DNA of 64,000 nucleotides, taken from Minisyncoccia bacterium. Its GTDB lineage: Bacteria; Patescibacteriota; Minisyncoccia; Phycocordibacterales; GWA1-40-21. Where the stretch lies: assembly GCA_049287185.1 (NCBI GenBank), contig JBAQFI010000012.1, positions 166,179-230,178 of the forward strand, given 5' to 3'. Position 1 is the stretch's first letter; each line of letters opens with the position of its first letter. A program made the position numbers and the translations under genes. The notes beneath the pieces were generated by a model. That model made no database searches. It was not told the DNA's origin and saw only the letters and a program-made list of their open reading frames with translations. Shown one piece after another: positions 6,690-62,799 of this stretch.

Positions 6690-7943
6690 TTATAGAAGTG
6701 ACTTCTTTCTTAACTGACGACGGTGGGCACCAATGGCAAAACGATGGGCCTCACCATTTATTTCTAATATTTGTTTAGAGTATTTTTTAGTAATGCTAGT
6801 TGAACCAATAATGGCTTTTGGCTGATGCTTTTCATTTTTAACCACGGAAACTACTGGCATAGTTAAATTTTTATCTGTTAAAATTTGTGTTGCTACTTTT
6901 ATCTGTCTTTTATCTCCATCAACTACAATTAAATCTGGTAAAGTCCATTCTGGGTGGTTCAGCCGACGAATTATAAGTTCTCTCAAGGCAGCCAGATCAT
7001 CGCGCTGACTATCCTTAATATTAAACAAACGATATTTCTGAGGTGTGAGTTCACCATTCTCGCTAACGACCATCACTCCTATTTCCGCAGCTCCAGCATG
7101 GTGTGCCACATCATAGGCTTCAATTCTAAATTTATTATTCGTATGATATTCGTTTGTCGATTCGTTGTATTCGTCCATTCGTATATTCGTTAAGCTGTCA
7201 TTTTTAATCAGTGCCACGTCCTGAATATGTTGTGGTGCAAAAAGAGTTCGTTTAACAACATTGGCTTCCTCAAATTTATGTTCTTTAGCCAAGGTTTTCA
7301 TTTCGCTATTTAACTCCTTTACCAAAGTTTTCTTTCTACCAGATAAAAAGTATTTGAGGTGGCGGATTATTTTATTGTAATCACGTTTCGAAATTAAACC
7401 GGAACAAGTACCAGGACAAAGACCAATCTGATAATTAAAACATGGTCTGTTTAGATTTAATGCACATTCACTGCGAAAAGGAAAAATTTTACGAATTATT
7501 CTTAGAGCTTCCTTAAGTGAATTACTTTGAGTAAAAGGTCCAAACTTTTCAGAAATCGGAAAATCAAAATCTTTCTCCAATTCCCTACCACGAATAGTTA
7601 GAACTCTGGGAAAATCTTCTTTGGTTATCACTACCCAATTAAAACTTTTATCATCTTTTTCTTTGGTGTTGTAATAAGGTGTGTGTTTTTTAATTAATGA
7701 GGCTTCAAGAATTAAGGCTTCTAAAACTGAATCTGTGACTTCAAAATCTATCCTGTCAGTCTTGGTTACCATATCTACTAAAAGTGGTCCGCGAGTAGCA
7801 ATCAAATCATTAGCAAAATAACTACGAACACGGTCGCGTAGTGACGTCGCCTTTCCGATATACAAAATCTCCGAGCCTCTCTTAAAGAAGTAAACTCCAG
7901 GCAAATCAGGTAAATTCAGTTTTTTTATATATTGACTTTTCAT
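6690..7943 (-). CDS. uvrC: excinuclease ABC subunit C, short form (GIY-YIG plus RNase H-like endonuclease domain, no C-terminal HhH); carries an in-frame repeat insertion
   Basis: GIY-YIG N-terminus (GVYFF...LYIGKA), UvrC endonuclease domain (IEAYDVAH, VVDGDKRQ). Confidence 0.85.
   Translation of the reverse strand: MKSQYIKKLNLPDLPGVYFFKRGSEILYIGKATSLRDRVRSYFANDLIATRGPLLVDMVTKTDRIDFEVTDSVLEALILEASLIKKHTPYYNTKEKDDKSFNWVVITKEDFPRVLTIRGRELEKDFDFPISEKFGPFTQSNSLKEALRIIRKIFPFRSECALNLNRPCFNYQIGLCPGTCSGLISKRDYNKIIRHLKYFLSGRKKTLVKELNSEMKTLAKEHKFEEANVVKRTLFAPQHIQDVALIKNDSLTNIRMDEYNESTNEYHTNNKFRIEAYDVAHHAGAAEIGVMVVSENGELTPQKYRLFNIKDSQRDDLAALRELIIRRLNHPEWTLPDLIVVDGDKRQIKVATQILTDKNLTMPVVSVVKNEKHQPKAIIGSTSITKKYSKQILEINGEAHRFAIGAHRRQLRKKSLL
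7136..7196. repeat. CGAAT-rich repeat (family A) half-copy inserted in frame inside uvrC (encodes ...IRMDEYNESTNEYHTNN...)
   Basis: about 90 percent identity to intergenic copies at 47157-47213 and rc of 11219-11290; lies at an extra about 17 aa segment relative to E. coli UvrC between the conserved helix and the RxEAxDxxH motif. Confidence 0.65.
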
Positions 7944-8001: not shown

Positions 8002-8556
8002 ATGAAATTATGTATAGGAAATTCACGTTTGGTTTTGGTTTTTCCGCTACTTGGCTTCGTTATAAAGTTTCCGAAGATTAATCTCAAACCAATATATGAT
8101 TTGGTAAGAGACGTACTGCTTAACAGATGGAAAAACCAGGAAATGCTTTGGTCACTGCCAATCGACATAGATTTTAGCCCGCGACATAAGTTGTATGGCG
8201 GAATCTACGAAAATTGGTTTGAATGGAAAGCTTGGCGTAAGACTCATTACAAACTCTTGTGTCCAACCTGGTTTTCTTTTTTTGGATTATTTAATATCCA
8301 AAAATATGGTGCGGCACTCAAGTCAGACCAAGTTGATATGAAAAAGGCTATTAATAAAGTGACAAATGGTGATTCATGTCACAGCCATAGTCATGGATTT
8401 GATGGTGCAGAGAATTACTGTGAAAGAAGTGGGCACATCCAAATGATTGATTATGGCACTCGTCGTCTCTGGCCGGTAATAAAAAAATACAATCAAGAAA
8501 TTGTCCGACTGACAGTTCAAGATTGTCAAAAAGAACAAGCCACAACTGATGGCTGA
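8002..8556 (+). CDS. hypothetical protein (His/Cys-rich segment CHSHSHG)
   Basis: GGAGGA RBS upstream; terminator at about 8560-8590. Confidence 0.45.
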   Translation: MKLCIGNSRLVLVFPLLGFVIKFPKINLKPIYDLVRDVLLNRWKNQEMLWSLPIDIDFSPRHKLYGGIYENWFEWKAWRKTHYKLLCPTWFSFFGLFNIQKYGAALKSDQVDMKKAINKVTNGDSCHSHSHGFDGAENYCERSGHIQMIDYGTRRLWPVIKKYNQEIVRLTVQDCQKEQATTDG

Positions 8557-11218: not shown

Positions 11219-11358
11219 TACGAATTTCTATACTAATATACGAATGGACGAATGATGCGAATCGATCAACAAATATTATACGAATTAAGAAAATTTCTTT
11301 GTTTGTGTGTCATTTGTTAATCGATTTGTTGTATTTGTGTTATTTGTTGATTTGTTAA
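11219..11358. repeat. CGAAT-rich palindromic repeat element (family A), two inverted half-copies; right half decayed CG to TG (tttgtt units)
   Basis: matches 47076-47213 and 7136-7196. Confidence 0.6.
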
Positions 11359-11635: not shown

Positions 11636-12373
11636 ATGAGTCTCACAAAAAAAAGGAATAGGTTAGTTATGAAAAAAACTAATGGGTTCTGGAAAGCCGC
11701 CGGTCAGATTCATGAATTTGCAATGAAAGCCAGAGACAGGGGTATAACTGAGGCAGACATAACATTGTTTACTCAAAGTCCTGAAAGAATGGATGACTTA
11801 AAAAAGCTGGCTCGTGGAGGGATAGTGTCGTATCCAACCGATAAAATTTTATCAATGATAGAATGTGATATAAAAATTCCAGCGGTTTGGGAACGTGTTT
11901 CTCTTGATGATTATCTCCGAATTAATATTGGTCAGATGGCAAAAAAACAATGGAGGGAGGGAGATATAAAAATTGTGTCTATCGACGGAGAAATTAGAGA
12001 ATTCTTTGGCGGACAGATGATCGACGGTGATGTTGGTCAATATTTGTCAGCTTACGAAATCGCCGAGAACAAAACTAACGACATAAATTATGATGGTCGA
12101 GTACGATTTGAACTCGGTGACAACCATGAAGTAAAGTTTACAACAATTTTTCACTTATTGCGCCAGCAACCCAAAGGTGAATCTGAAGGTTCACTACGTA
12201 TCGATAAATGTAATAAATTTTATGTTATCGATAATGATGGAGAGGTTCGCTGTGTCTGCATACAATGGTGGGAGGCAATTGGTGGATGGGGTATTAGTAT
12301 CTGCAAAAGTAATCTTGGTCGTCATATTGGTGGCCAAAATATCTTTTTCGCAAGACGTGGTATTTATGCTTAA
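11636..12373 (+). CDS. hypothetical protein (alternative start 11669 MKKTNGFW with AGGAA RBS)
   Basis: long ORF, no recognised family. Confidence 0.45.
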   Translation: MSLTKKRNRLVMKKTNGFWKAAGQIHEFAMKARDRGITEADITLFTQSPERMDDLKKLARGGIVSYPTDKILSMIECDIKIPAVWERVSLDDYLRINIGQMAKKQWREGDIKIVSIDGEIREFFGGQMIDGDVGQYLSAYEIAENKTNDINYDGRVRFELGDNHEVKFTTIFHLLRQQPKGESEGSLRIDKCNKFYVIDNDGEVRCVCIQWWEAIGGWGISICKSNLGRHIGGQNIFFARRGIYA

Positions 12374-12969: not shown

Positions 12970-13034
12970 ATTTACCCGGTAAAGTTTTGACTAGTTAAAA
13001 ATCGTAGATTTTTCAGTCAAAATTTTTGCGGGTT
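12970..13034. repeat. MITE-like module family C (tttacccggtaaagttttgac ... gtcaaaatttttgcgggttg), imperfect inverted termini
   Basis: same module in opposite orientation at 21008-21073; termini reused at 47776-47808 and 52823-52903. Confidence 0.55.
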
Positions 13035-13045
13035 GATTCGTTTAC

Positions 13046-16759: not shown

Positions 16760-16834
16760 GTATTAGAAAGTATTGAGTATATAGTATATGGTATATAGTA
16801 TAAAACTAATGACTTTGCTATAGCAAAGTCATTA

Positions 16835-16867
16835 TACTGTATACTAAATACTTGATACTATATACCA
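16835..16867. repeat. heptad direct repeats (ATACTNN)x4-5
   Basis: similar arrays at 19841-19877 and 52741-52770. Confidence 0.5.
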
Positions 16868-16978
16868 TTAATTCTGTCCCCAACATAAGCACAGTTTTTA
16901 CACTTTTATTAGTTTGCTAATGTCTTTGTTATTGGTAAAATATGATAGTAATATTTAATTCTAGGTTTATTCCCTTCT

Positions 16979-17066
16979 CCGTCATTGCGAGCGAAGCGAA
17001 GCAATCCAGACTTAATTAATTTTAAAATCCTGGATTGCCGCGGATGAGTACATCCTCGCAATGACA
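16979..17066. repeat. inverted-repeat element family IR-A (arms gtcattgcgagcgaagcgaagcaatccag / ctggattgccgc...ctcgcaatgac), immediately upstream of dnaB
   Basis: arm family recurs at 19239, 27667, 47803, 49757, 51080, 52845, 54418, 56743. Confidence 0.6.
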
Positions 17067-17080
17067 GAAAAAACAAAACA

Positions 17081-19222: not shown

Positions 19223-19238
19223 TCTATTTTTTCATATT

Positions 19239-19412
19239 CGTCATTGCGAGCCAGTACTCTGGCGCGGCAATCCATCTTAAAAGATAAAATTAATCCTCAC
19301 CACAAGGGCATTTCCATTTTCTACCACGGAGTACCATGAAGAAAATTAGATCACATCGGGAATCCAGTCAAAATTAATTCTGGATCCCATCGTGAGGTCT
19401 TGCCTCACGATG
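19239..19412. repeat. IR-A family element with long internal segment (caccacaagggcatttccattttcta...), right arm degenerate
   Basis: internal segment also inside copies at 49790-49866 and 56810-56870. Confidence 0.5.
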
Positions 19413-19840: not shown

Positions 19841-19877
19841 CATACTAAATACTACATACTTGATACTGAATACTAAA
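19841..19877. repeat. heptad direct repeats (ATACTNN)x5 upstream of rplU promoter-like TTGCAA-N17-TATATT
   Basis: 7 bp periodicity of AGTAT on the rplU coding strand. Confidence 0.5.
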
Positions 19878-19878
19878 T

Positions 19879-20955: not shown

Positions 20956-21007
20956 ATTATAGCAAATATGCTAAGATATTTAAACAGCTAATAATTATTA
21001 GATTTAA

Positions 21008-21073
21008 CCCACCCGCAAAAATTTTGACTGAAAAATCTCCGATTTTTAACTAGACAAAACTTTATCGGGCAAG
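21008..21073. repeat. MITE-like module family C, reverse orientation relative to 12970-13034, ends 4 nt before the yqeY-like start codon
   Basis: about 90 percent identical over about 60 bp. Confidence 0.55.
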
Positions 21074-27637: not shown

Positions 27638-27666
27638 TATTTTTTAATATTTAATTTGTTGTATTT

Positions 27667-27738
27667 GTCATTCCCGCGCAGGCGGGAATCCAGGTCTTTC
27701 TTTTAATTTTTCTGGATTCCCGCCTGCGCGGGAATGAC
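27667..27738. repeat. IR-A family element, canonical form: gtcattcccgcgcaggcgggaatccag - 18 bp - ctggattcccgcctgcgcgggaatgac, inside the cop operon
   Basis: perfect inverted arms each containing an 8 bp GC hairpin. Confidence 0.65.
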
Positions 27739-27764
27739 AGAGGATAATTTATAGTTAGTAATTA

Positions 27765-30350: not shown

Positions 30351-30378
30351 ATTATATACCCCCCTGGGGGTATGTCAA
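30351..30378 (-). promoter_or_regulatory. csoR-cop promoter TTGACA-N15-TATAAT with CsoR operator ATACCCCC-CT-GGGGGTAT (30356-30373) in the spacer; -10 ends 6 nt before the ATG (leaderless-like)
   Basis: perfect 8 bp inverted GC-tract half-sites similar to B. subtilis copZA operator; -35 overlaps first bases of MITE-B. Confidence 0.7.
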
Positions 30379-30518
30379 CCCCGTTGTGAGGTTTGGCATC
30401 GTTTTTGAAATTGTGTTTAGTTATCTGTTTTATTATGTATTTGCAAAACAGACCCTAGTATTAAACTAGAGTATGCTTAGACAAAAACAATTTTAATGCC
30501 AAATTCTACAACCGGGTC
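30376..30518. repeat. MITE-like element family B copy 2
   Basis: shares TIRs and about 80 percent of internal sequence with 669-843. Confidence 0.6.
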
Positions 30519-45970: not shown

Positions 45971-47059
45971 TTAAATTAATTTAAGAATATCTTTAACTGA
46001 AATAACAATCATCAGAAGTATCAGCAACATGAAGCCGACGGCATTAACTCTATTCGCCCATTTTGGATTGAGTGGACGACGGATAATCGCTTCAATACCA
46101 ATAAAAAGTAATCGTCCGCCATCAAGCGCTGGAAACGGAACGAGATTAAGTACTGCCAAGTTTATAGAAATCATAGCGGCAAAGCTGATAACGTAGGACC
46201 AACCAGCGGCTTTGGCTGAACCAACCATGCCAACAATACCGACTGGTCCAGAAATCTGAGAATAATCTGCCTGACCAATAAAAGCCTGACCGATAAACGA
46301 ATAGAGACTGACAAAAATGGCCTTGGTAGCTAAAATCGTATATTTCAGACCCTCCCAGGCAGCTAAATGAAATGGTAAACGCAGGTTGAGGGCTTCACTC
46401 ATCATAATTCCGACCGCTTTTTTGCCTTCAACCACACCGCTGACTGGAGTCACAAAAATGGTAACTGGTTCATTACTTCTGATTACACTGATAGCCAATT
46501 CGCCGTCAGCTTCTTTTATAAAATTTTGAACTGAATCAACAGTTGGTGCTTCCAAAATACGATCAGCGGTTTTTATTGAAACAATTTCATCGCCTCTCTC
46601 AAAACCTGCTTTCTCAGCTGGAGAATTCTTTTCCACTGAAACAATCATAACCAAATTACCACTGGAATATTGTTCATAATTTTGCGCTGCTGGAGCGGCT
46701 ACACCAGTCATAAATGAGGCGGTAAAAAGAGGCCAGGCAATAAGAAAATTACATAAAACTCCAGAGGAGATTATAAGTGCTTGCTTCCATTTTTTAGCCT
46801 TAGTAAAACTTCTTTCATTATCGACTCCACATTCAGTATCGTCATCAGGAGTTTCCCCATGAATTTTTACGTAACCACCGAATGGAATAGCATTCAGTTT
46901 ATAGGTAGTTTCTCCAACTTTCTTTCTATATAAGGTTGGAGGAAAACCAACAGCAAATTCATCAACGCGAACACCAGATTTCTTGGCCACAACAAAATGA
47001 CCTAACTCGTGAACAAAAACTAGGACTGCTAGTATTACTAAGAAAATTATTATAGTCAT
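45971..47059 (-). CDS. rseP: site-2 zinc metalloprotease RseP (HELGH, PDZ, LDGG)
   Basis: M50 motifs. Confidence 0.85.
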   Translation of the reverse strand: MTIIIFLVILAVLVFVHELGHFVVAKKSGVRVDEFAVGFPPTLYRKKVGETTYKLNAIPFGGYVKIHGETPDDDTECGVDNERSFTKAKKWKQALIISSGVLCNFLIAWPLFTASFMTGVAAPAAQNYEQYSSGNLVMIVSVEKNSPAEKAGFERGDEIVSIKTADRILEAPTVDSVQNFIKEADGELAISVIRSNEPVTIFVTPVSGVVEGKKAVGIMMSEALNLRLPFHLAAWEGLKYTILATKAIFVSLYSFIGQAFIGQADYSQISGPVGIVGMVGSAKAAGWSYVISFAAMISINLAVLNLVPFPALDGGRLLFIGIEAIIRRPLNPKWANRVNAVGFMLLILLMIVISVKDILKLI

Positions 47060-47075
47060 TATTTTAAATATTATG

Positions 47076-47213
47076 GAATTAACGAATCAACAAATGGACA
47101 AATGATACGAATCGAATTGACGAATTTCAACGAATAAAAATATCTCCAGTATTCATTCGTATGATATTTGTTAATCGATTCGTTGTATTCGTGTCATTCG
47201 TATATTCGTTAAA
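47076..47213. repeat. CGAAT-rich palindromic repeat element (family A), two inverted half-copies
   Basis: matches 11219-11358 and 7136-7196. Confidence 0.6.
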
Positions 47214-47215
47214 TG

Positions 47216-47767
47216 TTACAAAGAGATTTCTTTTTCTTTTCTTGCAAAAACTTCTTCCAGTTTCAAATTTGAATCATCAACATATTTTTGTAATTCAACT
47301 TTGTTGCGCTTGTGATCATCTTCACCAATTAAACCATCATCTTTTTTCTTATCAAGGTCAGTAAGAGTGTCGGTTCTGGCTGAGCGCAAAGAAATACGAG
47401 CATCTTCCAATTTTGATTTTGCCAATTTAAGTAAAGTGGTTCTAGTTTCGGAGGTTAATTCAGGAAAATTGACTCGGATACCCTTATCATCCGACATAAC
47501 GGACACACCAAGGTTAGCCACTTGAATCGCTTTTTCTAGAGCCTTTAGAACACTGTTGTCCCACGGGACTACACGTAAAGAACGTGCCCCTTCAGTAGTA
47601 ATACCTGCCACTTGATTGACTGGGCTCATTTGACCATAAGCCTCAACACGAACGCCATCGAGAATCATTGGTGAAGCCTGACCAGTACGAATTCCCTGAT
47701 ATTCTTTATGTAGCCAATCCTCTACTTCTTTAACCTTATTCTTAAAAATATTAAAATCGTAAGCCAT
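47216..47767 (-). CDS. frr: ribosome recycling factor
   Basis: full-length RRF similarity. Confidence 0.95.
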   Translation of the reverse strand: MAYDFNIFKNKVKEVEDWLHKEYQGIRTGQASPMILDGVRVEAYGQMSPVNQVAGITTEGARSLRVVPWDNSVLKALEKAIQVANLGVSVMSDDKGIRVNFPELTSETRTTLLKLAKSKLEDARISLRSARTDTLTDLDKKKDDGLIGEDDHKRNKVELQKYVDDSNLKLEEVFARKEKEISL

Positions 47768-47802: not shown

Positions 47803-47835
47803 TTGTCGTCCCCGCGCAGGCGGGGATCCAGTCAG
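47803..47835. repeat. solo IR-A-variant arm (gattgtcgtccccgcgcaggcggggatccagtc) preceded by gacaattctgattgtc palindrome and TTTACCCGGTAAA palindrome just upstream of the frr start
   Basis: same composite upstream of murA at 52823-52903. Confidence 0.5.
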
Positions 47836-47952
47836 ATTATCTTTCTTTCGGGTTAAATTATTACTTGTAATTATACCCGTATTCTAACATAAAACAACAA
47901 ACAAAAGAAAACTGCACCATTTCTGATGCAGTTATGTTTCTGTTTTTTACTT

Positions 47953-48953: not shown

Positions 48954-49760
48954 TTACGCCAATCTAGGTAAAATAATCGCAATATACTCCAAAATAATCT
49001 TAAATGATGACGAGGGATCCTCTGAATAGCGGCAATTTTTTTCTAACTCTGTTAGCCATGACAGATTTTCTTTGGTCTGTTTTTTGTCTTTAACTTTTTG
49101 GAAACAAAGTTTAAGTAATTGTCGTAAAAATTCAGAAATATCCCCCCTCGAAATTTCCTCGTCAGTTCTAGCAGATAGAATTTCACCAACTATTTTTAAG
49201 CGGTCAGCGATACTGCCAGCTAAAAATTCAGATTCATTAAACAAACTGGCACCCTCTTTAAAGGCTGGAATTTCTTCATTCACATCAATAATGACTAAAC
49301 GCGATGAAACTGTCGGTAACAAACGACTTGCGGTCGGTAAAATCAAAAAAATTTTGGTATCTGCTGTCGGTTCTTCAAAAAATTTTAACAAGGAATTTTG
49401 GGCATTAATGTGAATGTCATCAGCCATAATGACTATCACTTTGTTTTTGGCTTGTACTGGAAAACTCTGAGCCGGTAAAATTATCTCTTCTAAAATAGTA
49501 TTGTAATTTGGTTTACCTTCGGGATGAAGTTTTAGTAAGTCATATTCTCGTAAAGAAAAATCCGGATGACCAGTGGTATCAAAATCTAGTTTTTCCAATA
49601 GTTCGCTCTTTAATTCAGTTAAAATAGTTTGTTTGTCCCCCACTAAACAATAAGCGTGATGAGAAAAATCACAGTTTAGTTTTGTAATATTTTTTTTCTG
49701 AGATTTTGCAGACATGGAGAGATTATAACATGAACAAATTATGTTTCTCCAGTCTGTCAT
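48954..49760 (-). CDS. holB: DNA polymerase III delta-prime-like clamp-loader subunit (degenerate P-loop, LPTVSSR sensor region); likely starts at internal Met about 49715
   Basis: AAA+ clamp loader box motifs (FEEP, T.FIL). Confidence 0.65.
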   Translation of the reverse strand: MTDWRNIICSCYNLSMSAKSQKKNITKLNCDFSHHAYCLVGDKQTILTELKSELLEKLDFDTTGHPDFSLREYDLLKLHPEGKPNYNTILEEIILPAQSFPVQAKNKVIVIMADDIHINAQNSLLKFFEEPTADTKIFLILPTASRLLPTVSSRLVIIDVNEEIPAFKEGASLFNESEFLAGSIADRLKIVGEILSARTDEEISRGDISEFLRQLLKLCFQKVKDKKQTKENLSWLTELEKNCRYSEDPSSSFKIILEYIAIILPRLA

Positions 49761-49892
49761 TCCCGCGCAGGCGGGAATCCAGAAATAATAATCAATATTA
49801 ATAAAAACTGACTTTCCGTTGTGACCTAATTTTCTTGAGCGTAGCGATTAGAAAATGGAAATGCCCTTGTGGTACGCGGGAATGACAGAGGA
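49757..49892. repeat. IR-A family element with long internal segment
   Basis: left arm perfect, right arm partial. Confidence 0.55.
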
Positions 49893-51079: not shown

Positions 51080-51160
51080 TCTGTCATTCCCGCGCAGGCG
51101 GGAATCCAGGATTAGATCAAAATAAAATTTCTGGATTCCCGCCTGCGCGGGAATGACAAG
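51080..51160. repeat. IR-A family element, canonical two-arm form
   Basis: near-identical to 27667-27738. Confidence 0.65.
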
Positions 51161-52731: not shown

Positions 52732-52740
52732 TTTAATACT

Positions 52741-52770
52741 AAATACTGTATACTAGATACTATATACTTT
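52741..52770. repeat. heptad direct repeats (ATACTNN)x4
   Basis: same motif as 16835 and 19841. Confidence 0.5.
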
Positions 52771-52822: not shown

Positions 52823-52903
52823 AACCCACAAAAATTGACAATTCAGATTGTCATCCCCGTGAAGACGGGGATCCAGTCTTAATCAAAACTTTACCGGGTA
52901 AAA
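52823..52903. repeat. family C module termini (caacccacaaaaattgac ... tcaaaactttaccgggtaaa) with an IR-A-variant arm (52845-52878) in the middle; ends 2 nt before the murA start
   Basis: aligned against 12970-13034 and 47776-47835. Confidence 0.5.
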
Positions 52904-54417: not shown

Positions 54418-54606
54418 CTGTCATTCCCGCGCAGGTTGAAATTTGGGATGGGACCCAAATGAAAGACCTTGAGCGTTTTGTCTTCAAAATGTGAAAGGTG
54501 TACTGCTCCTGTAAGGAGAGAAATTCCAGTCCTTCTATGTTAAAACAATTTACGATTCCTAGATTCCCGCCTGCGCGGGAATGACAACACGAATAACAGG
54601 TTGAAA
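54418..54606. repeat. IR-A family element with left arm interrupted after gcgcag by about 115 bp and duplicated caggttgaaattt / tttttctgtcatt flanks (nested or rearranged copy)
   Basis: right arm intact at 54552-54580. Confidence 0.45.
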
Positions 54607-56742: not shown

Positions 56743-56916
56743 CACTCACACTCCGTCATTGCGAGCTGGTATTCCAGCGTGGCAATCCAGGATAATTCAT
56801 AAAAATTAAATACGGAGTCTCACCACAAGGGCATTTCCATTTTCTAATCGCTTCGCTCAAGAAAATTAGGTCTGGATTGCCACGCTTCGCTCGCAATGAC
56901 CGAAGAAGAGTGTGAG
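56743..56916. repeat. IR-A family element (gtcattgcgagctgg...caatccag / ctggattgccacgcttcgctcgcaatgac) with extended outer inverted repeat cactcacactc/gagtgtgag and the shared internal segment
   Basis: seen directly. Confidence 0.55.
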
Positions 56917-58444: not shown

Positions 58445-59029
58445 CTATTTAAGTGTGACACTCTTTATAACCACGGGAGTGATCAACCCTCCTCTATTAT
58501 TTTTCGGGGCCTTGGCCATAGCAGACAAAATATCTAGACCATTAGTTACCCTAGCGAATACTGCGTGTTCACCCTCTAGCCACGGTGCAGCATAGCCAGT
58601 AACAATAAAGAAACCACCACTCTTCTCACCAGTAACTGTTCCCAGTGAACCAAAGGTCATATGTTCATTATTTACTTCATTCCATGACACCTCCATTGTT
58701 GAGGTCGGAGCAGAAAACTGAATGAAATCATTTACCATATCGGACATTCTAACCCCATTATATAAACCAGCTTTAGTTAATTTAATAAATGAATTAACTG
58801 ACAGAGGTGCCGCTTCCTTCAAAAAAGAGATTTCTAAAATACCAAAATTGGTTTCAATGATTGCCCCTTTGGCTGAAGAGTTTAAATTACCAGCATTATC
58901 AATATTGTTATTCGCAAAATAAAGGGAAAGAGATACTGTTATCATCAATAGGAAAATAACAATACTGGAAATTAAAATTGAACGATGTTTTACAAGGTTT
59001 TGTATCATACTACTCTTCCTTACTACCAC
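58445..59029 (-). CDS. ppiB: membrane-anchored cyclophilin-type peptidyl-prolyl isomerase
   Basis: cyclophilin core motifs (FIKL...G.Y.G, FFI). Confidence 0.85.
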   Translation of the reverse strand: MVVRKSSMIQNLVKHRSILISSIVIFLLMITVSLSLYFANNNIDNAGNLNSSAKGAIIETNFGILEISFLKEAAPLSVNSFIKLTKAGLYNGVRMSDMVNDFIQFSAPTSTMEVSWNEVNNEHMTFGSLGTVTGEKSGGFFIVTGYAAPWLEGEHAVFARVTNGLDILSAMAKAPKNNRGGLITPVVIKSVTLK

Positions 59030-59399
59030 CAGATAGACCTCTGAGCATACTCTTCAATTTAGCACCACCGCGACGAATGAGACTGGTTCTTCGTTCTTTA
59101 TTGTGTTCAACAACACGGACTATTTCATCTTTAACCTCATCGATTGCCTGATAGAGGTCTTCTTTTTGGGATTTTACGGTGTAACTGCGACCTCGGATTA
59201 AAGCCTTAACTTCAGCTAGAAATATGGCTCCTTCTTTGTGGTGATTGGTAGTTTTTTCAATATCAATATTAAATTCAGCCGCCTCAACAACATCTGGGTT
59301 ATGACCTAAAAACTTTTCAACATGGGAGATGCGCTTATTAATATAATCATTTATGGCTGGAGTAATTTCTAGATTCTTTGAATGAATAGTTATTTTCAT
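59010..59399 (-). CDS. hpf: ribosome hibernation promoting factor / RaiA, short form
   Basis: MKI.I...NLE.TPAI..Y pattern. Confidence 0.85.
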   Translation of the reverse strand: MKITIHSKNLEITPAINDYINKRISHVEKFLGHNPDVVEAAEFNIDIEKTTNHHKEGAIFLAEVKALIRGRSYTVKSQKEDLYQAIDEVKDEIVRVVEHNKERRTSLIRRGGAKLKSMLRGLSGGSKEE

Positions 59400-59425
59400 A
59401 TTTTTGATAATTTATTAATAATTTT

Positions 59426-59647
59426 TTAACGGCCAGCGCTCAAGATTTTACTTGGCGAATGATGGCCACTAATAATCCTTATATCTCCATTATACTCCGG
59501 AAACTTTTCTTTGACCAACTCTAAAATACGTTTATTGGCTAAATTTCTTTCAGCCGGCTCTTTAACCCAGATTCGTAAAAAATTTGGTTCAATTTCTTCA
59601 ATCTTCTCCTTCTTAGCATTCGTGACTGCTCTAATCTTTATGTACAT
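59426..59647 (-). CDS. DUF167/YggU-family protein
   Basis: family-typical 70-aa fold signature (V.A.....G.I.G). Confidence 0.6.
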   Translation of the reverse strand: MYIKIRAVTNAKKEKIEEIEPNFLRIWVKEPAERNLANKRILELVKEKFPEYNGDIRIISGHHSPSKILSAGR

Positions 59648-59764: not shown

Positions 59765-59836
59765 TCCGTGGTAGCTCAGTGGTAGAGCGATCGCCTGTTA
59801 AGCGATTGGTCGTAGGTTCGATCCCTACCCACGGAG
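59765..59836 (+). tRNA. tRNA-Asn (anticodon GUU)
   Basis: manual cloverleaf: acceptor TCCGTGG/CCACGGA, anticodon loop CTGTTAA, T-loop TTCGATC. Confidence 0.9.
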
Positions 59837-61378
59837 CAATGTAGGATGAGAGAGCACGAAAGTGCTCTTTTGTCTTTTATTAGCAACGTTTTTCTCTGGT
59901 TCGAAAGTATCATTAAGTACTGGTACCCAATTAGTCAAAAACTGGAAGGCTAAAGTGTAATCTGCACTTATTTCATCTGTGTTTAATGACATGTTCGAAA
60001 ATATTTTGCTGAGAAGTAATCTCTTGTCTTCTATACTGCATCTTGGACTCTTATATATCTCTTCTGCTTTTGACGCTAGTTCATGAATTGCAAAACCAAT
60101 TTCATAATACTTTGTATTTCCTTCATTTAATTTCTTGAGTAATTCAATACCATCTTCCTTATCCTTTGTGTATTCTGCAAATTTTTTATTATAGAATTCC
60201 GGTGTAATCTTTGAATCAATCTTATCTTCATAAATAGCTTCGAGACGCTTTTGTGCTAATTCAACTTGTTGATTGGCTTCCTTTTGCATTGTGACCTGAT
60301 ATTTTATTTCCCCATCATGATTACTTTTAAGTGCTTCTTCAAGAATTTTTAAAACATTTCTTGATTTTGGAGCGACTTTATCAAACAGAGGAAATATCAT
60401 TTCTTCAACTTTCTCCTGACGAAACCACTTCTTTTGACTGCATTTTCGGTAATGATTACAATGTCCATACCAATGTTCTCTTTGAATTTCCCAAGTAACT
60501 GTTCCTTTGCATTCACCACATTCTATCTTTGCTTTAAATACAGGTAGATGTTTTCGATATTGAGGAACCTTAAATTTACGCATCAATTTTTCTTTAACTT
60601 GATCGAAAAGACTTTTGGCTATTATAGGTTCATGCTTGGCTGGATAGAGATTTCCATTCCAACTCATCATGCCGTAATAGAAAGGGTCTGAAAGAAGATC
60701 ATACATTCTTGATTTCCCCACTTTTTTTCCTTCTCTATTTCTTAAACCTTTCTTATACATAAGGTCTGAAAGAGCAGGAGTTGAATAGTTACCAGTTGAA
60801 TATAACCGAAACATTTCAATTATTATTGGTTTTCTCTCCTCATCTATAACATGTATCTTATGCCCTTTATCTCCAATGGTTTTATAACCTAATGGTGGCT
60901 TGGTTGGTAACCAACCCTGAGCTATCTTCTCTTTTTGCCCCTTTTTTACTTCTTCAGATAGATTAGCTATATACTTCTTTGCAAGGACAATTTCGATGTC
61001 CCATCTAAACTTCTCGTCTGATTTTGAGTATTTATGTATTACAAGATTTTGTTTTACAAAATGAATTTGTCTTTCGCAATTTTCTTCAACCCAGTTATTT
61101 ACGTCTAAAGCTTCTTTCAAATTCCTAGTTAGTCTATCAACTTTCTCGCATAATAATACTGATATACCATTTCTTAACATATAGCTCATCATTTCTCCGA
61201 ATATCTTTCTTTGTTTAGCACCACTTGCTGATTCTGCCACTGAAAAGGTCTTATCAACTTCAAATCCCCTCCTTTCTGCGTAATCAATCAAAAGTTTTTC
61301 CTGGGCTGGTAATGAATAACCTGTTTCTTCTTGTTCTTTAGATGATACCCTACAATATGCTACTGATTTAATTTTCAT
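59825..61378 (-). CDS. large serine recombinase/integrase (resolvase catalytic domain YCRVSSKEQ, recombinase domain, Zn ribbon), 3' end abuts tRNA-Asn
   Basis: catalytic Ser motif and domain order. Confidence 0.85.
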   Translation of the reverse strand: MKIKSVAYCRVSSKEQEETGYSLPAQEKLLIDYAERRGFEVDKTFSVAESASGAKQRKIFGEMMSYMLRNGISVLLCEKVDRLTRNLKEALDVNNWVEENCERQIHFVKQNLVIHKYSKSDEKFRWDIEIVLAKKYIANLSEEVKKGQKEKIAQGWLPTKPPLGYKTIGDKGHKIHVIDEERKPIIIEMFRLYSTGNYSTPALSDLMYKKGLRNREGKKVGKSRMYDLLSDPFYYGMMSWNGNLYPAKHEPIIAKSLFDQVKEKLMRKFKVPQYRKHLPVFKAKIECGECKGTVTWEIQREHWYGHCNHYRKCSQKKWFRQEKVEEMIFPLFDKVAPKSRNVLKILEEALKSNHDGEIKYQVTMQKEANQQVELAQKRLEAIYEDKIDSKITPEFYNKKFAEYTKDKEDGIELLKKLNEGNTKYYEIGFAIHELASKAEEIYKSPRCSIEDKRLLLSKIFSNMSLNTDEISADYTLAFQFLTNWVPVLNDTFEPEKNVANKRQKSTFVLSHPTLLRG

Positions 61379-62026: not shown

Positions 62027-62799
62027 ATATTTTAGATTAATAATAAAACTGCCTACTTCTACTTAAATAGATTTAAGATTAAAACTTCATAATATTTGAA
62101 TACGAAAAAAGCCCTATTTACCTCATAGTAGGAATCTTCACAGACCTACCATGAGCTAAACAGGGTTCTTTATGTGAAGATTTTGTTATATACACAAGAC
62201 TTTGAAATAGACGTAATTCAATAGAATTCGACCTTAGAAAGCTTTAAAACTTAAATGAGCAACCGAAATATACATATTCATATTAATAAAGTAATTCTAA
62301 CATAGTCCCAAAAAGTCATCTTAATATCTGAAAGATATTAAATAAAAAATGAAAATAACCTTATAATATAGGGGTTTTCTTATAAAATGTCTGATGTAAC
62401 ACTAATTTAGTTTTGATAGTGGGGGGGGGCGTAGTTAAGTTTAACTTCCCTAGATATCCAAGAGACCCTAGGGTAACCAAACTATTTATGCTTCGGAAAA
62501 TTATTCTCAATTTCAAAATCGAGCGGTCAAAAAAATTTCTAAAATTTTCACAGAAAATAGGGTTGGCAAGGTTAAATAGAAAGGGTAGAATATAAGGGTC
62601 GGTAAAACTAAATATGTGACCTAACCTCCACAGAGTAATTTATGGAGCACGGTCTTAAATCGTAAGCCACAAACAACCTATCATTAGGGCGTGGCTTACG
62701 TTATACCGGGAAACTGGTATATGGCCGCAAGGCCTCCTAGTGGTAGGCTTTTTGTTGCTTATTTTTTAGGATTACTAATTAAAAACAAAAGAAAATTAA

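Follow-up and report, generated by a model that had tools for sequence, protein, structure and literature searches.

How does a segment of an intergenic repeat come to be translated inside a DNA repair protein, and what kind of event put it there? This question is raised by the uvrC gene (6690-7943, minus strand) of a Candidate Phyla Radiation (CPR) bacterium, of which we analysed a 64-kb stretch of DNA with 36% GC (hereafter the window). An initial annotation had pointed out that part of this gene resembles intergenic palindromic repeats near 47 and 11 kb, and had likened it to the Rickettsia palindromic elements (RPEs). We found that the segment is a single arm of a repeat family built from ATTYGT hexamers (7137-7193, plus strand as a repeat; coding on the minus strand as L251-N269, LTNIRMDEYNESTNEYHTN), as located by exact match, blastn and a profile. 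It is most probable that this arm was copied recently from the intergenic family into the UvrC linker of this lineage, partly replacing the linker and leaving a neutral peptide. Few ways are documented by which bacterial proteins gain new loop segments, and the in-frame capture of repeats, whether selfish or regulatory, is one of them. Most work on it concerns RPEs in Rickettsia or, for repetitive extragenic palindromes (REPs), a few Proteobacteria and Opitutus, and shows an unexplained bias toward repair and replication genes. The uvrC case extends such capture to CPR bacteria, whose very small genomes are usually called streamlined.

A single repeat arm lies in frame within uvrC

The 55-mer highlighted in the initial annotation occurs exactly once, at 7137-7191 on the plus strand, inside an open reading frame (ORF) of 417 aa whose translation around the segment reads ...SLTNIRMDEYNESTNEYHTNNKFRIEAYDVAH... 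The arm itself is 57 nt long, corresponding to 19 codons. A blastn search against the window aligned it to the intergenic sequence at 47155-47212 with 91.4% identity over 58 nt (E 2.8e-14) and, in reverse complement, to 11231-11295 with 81-83% identity over 54-64 nt. The identity of about 90 percent originally claimed for both copies therefore holds for the 47-kb copy and is too high for the 11-kb copy. The match to 47155-47212 spans the non-repeated spacers and the terminal TTAA as well as the hexamers. A profile built from aligned copies recovered exactly five arms in the 64 kb, at 7137-7193(+), 47155-47212(+), 47079-47135(-), 11231-11285(-) and 11303-11358(+), with E values running from 1.3e-15 (the uvrC arm) to 4.9e-08 and the next match at E 3.5. 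A degenerate pattern likewise gave 5 matches in the window and 0 in 100 shuffles. Exact location, the 417-aa ORF, blastn and the profile all confirm that a repeat copy lies in frame within uvrC, and sequence comparison points to homology with the intergenic repeats, a chance match not being expected.

The reading frame of this copy is particular to it. On its coding strand the uvrC arm is stop-free solely in the frame used, and in that same frame the arms 47079-47135 and 11231-11285 contain two stops each, while 47155-47212 is off by 1 nt. Given that the remaining arms of the window either contain stops in the matching frame or differ in length by 1 nt, the ATTYGT family is not designed for translation, and the uvrC copy is one that survived selection for an intact gene. 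Among the repeats of the window, it is the sole intragenic copy of any intergenic repeat.

The host protein appears intact and the arm falls in a predicted linker

UvrC from the window is of the short CPR type, without the C-terminal helix-hairpin-helix (HhH) domain. It is 100% identical to a protein from a metagenome-assembled genome labelled 'Minisyncoccia bacterium', by which the organism is assigned to the CPR. Pfam searches of the 417-aa protein identified GIY-YIG (17-91), UVR (205-231; weak, E 0.007) and UvrC_RNaseH_dom (272-404; E 6e-31). Residues 2-101 and 271-416 align to solved UvrC domains in the PDB, the former matching GIY-YIG domains of UvrC and the latter beginning, at residue 271, the alignment to the C-terminal domain of Thermotoga maritima UvrC (2nrt). 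The protein thus has the domain order of its class, namely an N-terminal GIY-YIG nuclease domain with catalytic Tyr/Arg/Glu/Asn, followed by a UVR motif and an RNase H-like endonuclease domain with catalytic Asp (D278, invariant like H281). All residues that are invariant in a 98-sequence alignment are kept, including Y18, Y28, R38, E75, N92, D278 and H281. Since every family-invariant residue is present, the gene looks intact and its product appears functional.

UvrC of Escherichia coli and T. maritima carries a C-terminal HhH DNA-binding domain. No Pfam match to such a domain was obtained in the window protein, which stops at residue 417, directly past the endonuclease domain; its 120 closest homologues are 395-497 aa long. 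The missing HhH domain is a trait of the CPR clade and is unconnected with the insert, and E. coli UvrC is a poor yardstick for proteins of this short type.

We further modelled the protein with AlphaFold2 using the 98-sequence alignment. The model reached a mean pLDDT of 84.9, and the sole segment below 50 comprised residues 247-269, which coincide with the arm. This segment is flanked on one side by the confident helix 224-239 (codons 7227-7274, minus strand; pLDDT >90), the last helix of the UVR or UvrB-binding region marked by Pfam UVR 205-231, just upstream of the linker. On the other side lies the strand 273-280 (RIEAYDVA; codons 7104-7127, minus strand), which AlphaFold2, the 2nrt alignment and the invariant columns identify as the strand that opens the RNase H-like endonuclease domain and which holds D278. 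The arm is thus predicted to lie in an unstructured linker, with the UvrB-binding helices on one side and the endonuclease domain on the other.

Orthologues lack the segment

The closest homologue (P0002, 404 aa, encoded at locus L001) is 85% identical to the window UvrC. In a nucleotide alignment of the two loci, the flanks agree codon for codon on both sides, and in place of the 57-nt arm L001 has 18 unrelated nt, GATTCACCAGTGGTAGTA, so that the net gain in the window is 39 nt or 13 codons. The arm peptide is absent from all 119 UvrC homologues compared (P0002 and 118 further ones), and the uvr loci of five relatives (L001 and L035-L038) contain no ATTYGT array. The insertion is thus lineage-specific, as had been proposed; orthologues from other genomes that carry the same segment were looked for, and none was found. 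Because the segment is absent from orthologues and the family is intergenic and common elsewhere, we infer that copying from intergenic DNA into the gene is much more likely than the reverse.

In the set of 120 homologues, HIQDV and R(I/V)EAYD are separated by a linker of 14-66 aa. That of the window has 29 aa, exceeding the shortest by 15 residues; 19 come from the arm and 10 native residues are left. As these 10 residues are fewer than the shortest linker of the family, the event replaced some sequence and was not a pure addition.

Could the segment instead have arisen within uvrC, by slippage or tandem duplication of a GAAT-rich linker or by convergence, or could the intergenic copies be derived from the gene? 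In favour of this, Tandem Repeats Finder detects weak period-8/16 structure at 7156-7190. In addition, the distant orthologues P0034, P0070, P0071 and P0078 have GAAT-periodic linkers of the 'DEYRMSNVEY' type, which are conserved among themselves, vertically inherited in a subclade and without intergenic copies nearby. Their similarity to the element is marginal (1-32 of 500 shuffles reach the score). However, the 91% identity to 47155-47212 covers non-repeated spacers and TTAA, and of the 26 distinct arms described below, all but the uvrC copy are intergenic, in many genomes whose uvrC does not contain the segment. The linker of P0002 has nothing similar to the element, with 398 of 500 shuffles reaching its local-alignment score. 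A local origin is therefore highly improbable and close to refuted.

Given the marginal alignment, we rejected the 'DEYRMSNVEY' linkers as homologues of the element and treated them as unrelated or too old to tell. Their DNA (L036 10745-10783, L037 6029-6067 and L038 10746-10775) is 87-95% identical between loci, and the uvrA and uvrC genes of these three loci are about 66-71% identical to those of the window.

The flanks of the arm also bear on whether a repeat-induced mis-join during assembly or binning placed an intergenic arm inside uvrC. The source is a metagenome-assembled genome, this exact UvrC is on record from no other contig, and in another read set (Logan contigs) the same organism, traced by the end genes of the window, assembles only to pieces of 1-2 kb, all of which would be compatible with such an error. 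A mis-join at a repeat would, however, bring foreign flanks, and none is seen: both flanks are collinear with orthologous uvrC to the codon, the frame is kept, and the arm is exactly 19 codons. Moreover, analogous in-frame repeats occur in independently assembled orthologues. Taken together, these observations make an assembly artefact exceedingly unlikely.

Anatomy and folding of the ATTYGT arrays

An arm of the family consists of six ATTYGT hexamers at spacings of 11, 12, 9, 8 and 8 nt; TCGATT is conserved at its centre, and TTAA forms its end. In the uvrC arm, the hexamers start at 7137, 7148, 7160, 7169, 7177 and 7185. Across the family, the spacing ranges from 8 to 12 nt, and the hexamers together with their spacing are conserved far above the spacers. 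Intergenic copies are single arms or inverted pairs of 133-150 bp. In the paired form, inverted arms of 55-58 nt enclose loops of about 15-53 nt, and the pairs fold into long hairpins. Arms at different loci resemble each other more than do the two arms of one pair.

Both intergenic loci of the window are inverted pairs with the reverse-complement arm first. One pair (47079-47212) occupies the interval from the stop codon of frr (47216) to the start of rseP (47059), with RRF and Peptidase_M50 as its Pfam neighbours. Its left arm (47079-47135, reverse complement) is separated by a loop of ~19 nt from the right arm (47155-47212), which is the nearest relative of the uvrC copy, and the pair forms a long hairpin whichever strand is folded (-42.9 kcal/mol with z -5.4, and -44.4 kcal/mol with z -4.8). 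The other pair (11219-11358) is located directly upstream of uvrA (start 11215) and comprises a left arm at 11231-11285 (reverse complement, with an extra hexamer at 11220) and a right arm at 11301-11358. In the right arm all six hexamers read ATTTGT rather than ATTCGT, with the central TCGA retained. Because ACGAAU pairs with AUUUGU through G-U, this pair folds well only on the plus strand (-43.1 kcal/mol, z -5.4), as compared with only -18.5 kcal/mol (z -1.9) on the minus strand. The all-ATTTGT arm could reflect either strand-specific structure or CpG decay; the observed/expected ratio of CpG in the window is 0.86.

The uvrC arm alone has no secondary structure (z 0.1 and 0.6). The original description of a palindromic element in uvrC is thus correct as to the repeat and needs amending as to its form, since the gene holds only one 57-nt arm of the palindrome, without a fold. 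A promoter and terminator scan of uvrC found no promoter-like or terminator-like site at the arm. The gathering scan against Rfam returned no match for the ATTYGT element, and a permissive scan of 47040-47240 gave generic long-hairpin miRNA models only, far under threshold. We also considered the arrays as sigma-70 promoters and rejected this by eye, an inference from the lack of an acceptable -35/-10 pair in either orientation.

The family is intergenic and variably present in other CPR genomes

To place the five window arms in a wider context, we scanned species-representative genomes and JGI metagenomes, neither of which includes the source genome, with the degenerate pattern. Matches were found in 12 stretches of the former and 20 of the latter, and those in contigs below 45% GC carry real arrays, some of these contigs being syntenic with the window. 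After profile filtering, 26 distinct arms were retained in contigs <45% GC, all intergenic except the uvrC copy, which is the one coding arm among the five of the window and among the 26 overall. The family is intergenic in about 20 contigs from other CPR genomes, and nearly all of the distinct arms are found no more than 25 nt from the end or start of a gene. A typical arm follows a stop codon by 0-14 nt and precedes the next start by 7-25 nt, and both orientations occur. Inverted pairs are found in several cases, whereas single arms make up the majority in other genomes. No pattern match was found in viral contigs, and there was no sign of a phage origin. A comparison of stop-free arm translations with 5.8 billion proteins yielded 214 word-sharing candidates and none with E <= 10, a search that with so large a database has no power for 20-aa segments and speaks neither for nor against further in-frame copies.

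The family also differs in presence between relatives. A 1-kb metagenome contig (L029) has flanks 81-89% identical to window 58955-59637 on both sides and holds a 150-bp inverted pair between the stop of an upstream ORF and the start of hpf; in the window, this interval is a spacer of only 26 nt (59400-59425, minus strand). Because the contig has a pair where the window has a spacer, the ATTYGT family is gained or lost between relatives. The filled and empty sites are AT-rich and diverged, and no duplication is definable.

At non-orthologous places, arms are 92-95% identical between the window and genomes with coding DNA that shares 75% identity with it or has no detectable similarity (L004 and L006). 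Such identity may reflect recent spread or a strongly constrained array sequence, and it keeps alive the explanation that the arrays are functional cis-elements. According to this explanation, a cluster of protein-binding sites was recruited to the uvr genes and places uvrA and uvrC under common control, the UvrC peptide being a by-product. It would account for the location of two of the three window loci at uvr genes only 4 kb apart, for the conservation of hexamers and spacing far above that of the spacers, and for a single arm without a fold, unlike a REP hairpin or that of a MITE (miniature inverted-repeat transposable element). Against it, the other copies lie beside unrelated genes (frr/rseP, hpf, mraZ and rpiB-like), the uvr loci of the five relatives have no array, the orientation to neighbouring genes varies, and the uvrC copy shows neither a promoter-like or terminator-like site nor an Rfam match. 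We regard shared control of the uvr genes by these arrays as unlikely.

Probable recent copying of an arm into the uvrC linker

We favour an origin of the segment by copying and propose the following course of events. The source would be a small, non-coding intergenic family that is prone to gain and loss and whose arms occur singly or as inverted pairs. One arm would have been copied recently into uvrC of this lineage, by transposition, template switching or a gene-conversion-like patch, and would have taken the place of part of the unstructured linker by which the UvrB-binding helices are connected to the RNase H-like endonuclease domain. A complete UvrC is still encoded, because the arm length is divisible by three and the frame in use is free of stops. 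The resulting protein would carry a 19-residue hydrophilic loop without a function of its own, which probably persists through the tolerance of the linker for almost any sequence; the arm peptide is accordingly best seen as neutral.

Several observations weigh against this proposal. No target-site duplication is visible in the alignment with L001, and the arm takes the place of ~18 nt with no clean insertion junction, which leaves classical cut-and-paste or copy-and-paste transposition undemonstrated. The gene holds only one arm, and no transposase or mobilising gene was found in the window, the sole recombinase being a serine recombinase by tRNA-Asn. The marginal similarity of the 'DEYRMSNVEY' linkers counts on the same side, this uvrC allele is one sequence from one assembly, and the genome scan covered 64 kb. 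Finally, the conservation across genomes could mean functional binding sites rather than selfish DNA, in which case the uvrC copy might not be neutral. Even so, uvrC provides a clean and recent example of capture, because a donor-like copy 91% identical to the arm and an orthologue without the insert are both available.

As to a candidate mobiliser, no obvious REP-associated tyrosine transposase (RAYT) was noted among the window ORFs, ten of which were scanned with Pfam and the remainder read by eye. In another contig (L014, 2982-3468), a 125-aa GxxExxY / PD-(D/E)XK (PDDEXK_3) gene is exactly bracketed by inverted ATTYGT arrays, between rpiB-like and rpe-like genes. This arrangement was seen once, and the gene is the sole cargo found between inverted arms. 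It could represent a form of the element that is autonomous or carries cargo, or else two neighbouring spacers may each hold an array by coincidence. We rejected it as the mobilising gene of the family, as it is a single case with no homologue at any other locus examined.

Comparison with known repeat systems

RPEs are palindromes of about 150 bp with a conserved open frame and many in-frame copies in Rickettsia genes, and for some RPE families nearly half of the copies lie in genes (PMC10969869). The ATTYGT family is like them in being a small, mostly intergenic repeat whose in-frame copy in a housekeeping gene is tolerated and adds a surface or loop peptide. Its intergenic pairs measure 133-150 bp and fold into hairpins. 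In contrast, the copy within uvrC is a 57-nt single arm without a fold, the family lacks a conserved frame and has stops in the other window copies, and a single copy among the 26 distinct arms is coding, far from the large share found in genes for RPEs. The host, moreover, is a CPR bacterium and not Rickettsia. The RPE-like behaviour suggested at the outset is thus upheld for the in-frame copy tolerated in uvrC, and it does not extend to the family, which is rarely coding and has no frame of its own.

Intragenic REPs that belong to the GTAG/CGTC super-families encode 20-30 aa, are present singly or as dimers, are biased to repair genes, and include R. conorii RPE-4 and RPE-6, which have been equated with CGTC REPs; in-frame repeats in excinuclease genes, both Rickettsia RPEs and REPs, are already published (Di Nocera et al. 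2013, BMC Genomics 14:522). The GC-rich hairpins that we found in UvrC and UvrA of orthologues and between genes in the window resemble such REPs. The ATTYGT arm, however, is an AT-rich hexamer array with neither a GTAG/CGTC tag nor self-complementarity.

In its paired form, the family also resembles MITEs and REPINs, being multicopy, without coding capacity, 133-150 bp long with two inverted arms, and variably present between related genomes. Terminal inverted repeats around a non-coding core, within a total of 50-500 bp, are found in this paired form only, and presence/absence polymorphism is seen both upstream of hpf (L029 versus the window) and in uvrC (the window versus L001). It differs in that no target-site duplication is definable, neither a parent insertion sequence nor a RAYT-like gene was seen, no related autonomous element with the same ends and a transposase was found, other genomes mostly have single arms, and paired arms are less alike than arms across loci. 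The enterobacterial small mobile repeats RU-1/2/3 and ERIC are intergenic units that occasionally lie within genes and give new peptide segments (Delihas 2007, PMC2759123); their lineage and sequence family are different. In full-text literature searches, we found neither repeats of this kind described from CPR bacteria nor any mention of an ATTYGT-array element. The phenomenon, even in uvr genes, is already published, and the present case works like RPE or intragenic REP insertion without being a member of either family.

Unrelated repeats recur in the UvrC linker of relatives

The linker is a site of insertion well beyond the window. In the 98-sequence alignment, insertions of >=6 aa cluster at four UvrC sites, after window residues 124 (18 sequences), 162 (17), 251-253 (26) and 359 (8), so that 26 of the 98 sequences have such insertions at the linker. 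Identical repeat peptides recur at different loops in different UvrC proteins. In P0005-7 and P0003, the linker reads CHSRxGGNP...LDPRVREDDR, and in L035 this corresponds to an in-frame doublet of GTCATTCCCGTGAAAACGGGAATCC-type GC-rich hairpins; a hairpin of the L035-linker type lies in frame in uvrA of L038, where it is read as MDSRFHGNDS. The linkers of P0088, P0052 and P0043 contain VIASEAxQS, matching the CGTCATTGCGAGCGAAGC...GCAATCC hairpins of the window, and that of L037 contains FSGKRFDLESPKRSNLEE, a perfect hairpin with an 11-bp stem. Taken together, related CPR genomes often take up in-frame repeats, and the inter-domain linker of UvrC is a recurrent sink for unrelated ones. The same filter of tolerance that admitted the ATTYGT arm explains why related UvrC proteins carry other repeats at the linker.

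The repeats concerned are also found between genes of the window. GC-rich REP-like hairpins of the TGTCATTCCCGCGCAGGCGGGAATCCAG type (27665-27740, 47803-47843, 49755-49786, 51082-51159, 52848-52878, 54418-54442 and 54558-54587) occur as intergenic singles and head-to-head, REPIN-like doublets, and this is the type translated in UvrC of P0003 and P0005-7 and in UvrA of L038. CGTC-tagged hairpins, CGTCATTGCGAGC...GCAATCC (16978-17017, 17031-17078, 19227-19289, 56752-56804 and 56864-56903), translate as VIASEAKQS, which is present in the UvrC linker of P0088, P0052 and P0043. A second array family, (ATACTNN)n with a period of 7, is present at 16769-16866, 19842-19878 and 52735-52768, as one inverted pair around a small hairpin and two single arrays, an architecture like that of the ATTYGT arrays.

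A broader hypothesis, which we put forward tentatively and consider less likely than not to hold in full, is that the ATTYGT and ATACT arrays form an undescribed class of CPR repeats, acting as non-hairpin arms with multiple binding sites for a dedicated protein, which would be a host factor or a mobiliser resembling a transposase. They would account for a part of a routine in-frame capture of repeats that remodels housekeeping proteins in CPR/Paceibacteria, in the course of which four permissive loops of UvrC would have received repeats of at least six families. If this is true, CPR bacteria would join Rickettsia as a large natural system in which protein evolution through inserted repeats can be studied. 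In practice, inserts of this kind add to the variation in protein length, give rise to spurious 'novel' peptides, and can break CPR assemblies and alignments.

Other features of the window

By a greedy ORF count, the window is 79% coding, and it has unusually many small repeats for a CPR genome. A repeat of ~120 nt with an internal hairpin occurs twice (671-791 and 30378-30517) and is 79-82% conserved in other CPR contigs (L007, 5362-5504 and 7074-7213; L022, 470-609). It has no Rfam match even at E <= 1 and could be either a structured RNA not yet described or a further mobile repeat. Two further intergenic repeats form inverted pairs, one of 67 nt with 91% identity (12972-13038 and 21006-21072) and one of 51 nt with 98% identity (49823-49873 and 56822-56872).

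Two ORFs beside the uvr genes, on the opposite strand, have no Pfam or NCBIfam match (8002-8556, 184 aa; 11636-12373, 245 aa). The interval from uvrA to the L9 gene, which contains the 245-aa ORF and the palindromic element, spans 1.3 kb in the window, compared with 344 nt in the relative L035. The serine recombinase mentioned above is a large one with Resolvase and Recombinase domains (59765-61378, minus strand), whose 3' end overlaps tRNA-Asn (59765-59837) and which probably marks the edge of an integrated element. A LOOT RNA (Rfam RF03000) is located at 62618-62735, scoring 73 bits against a gathering score of 46.

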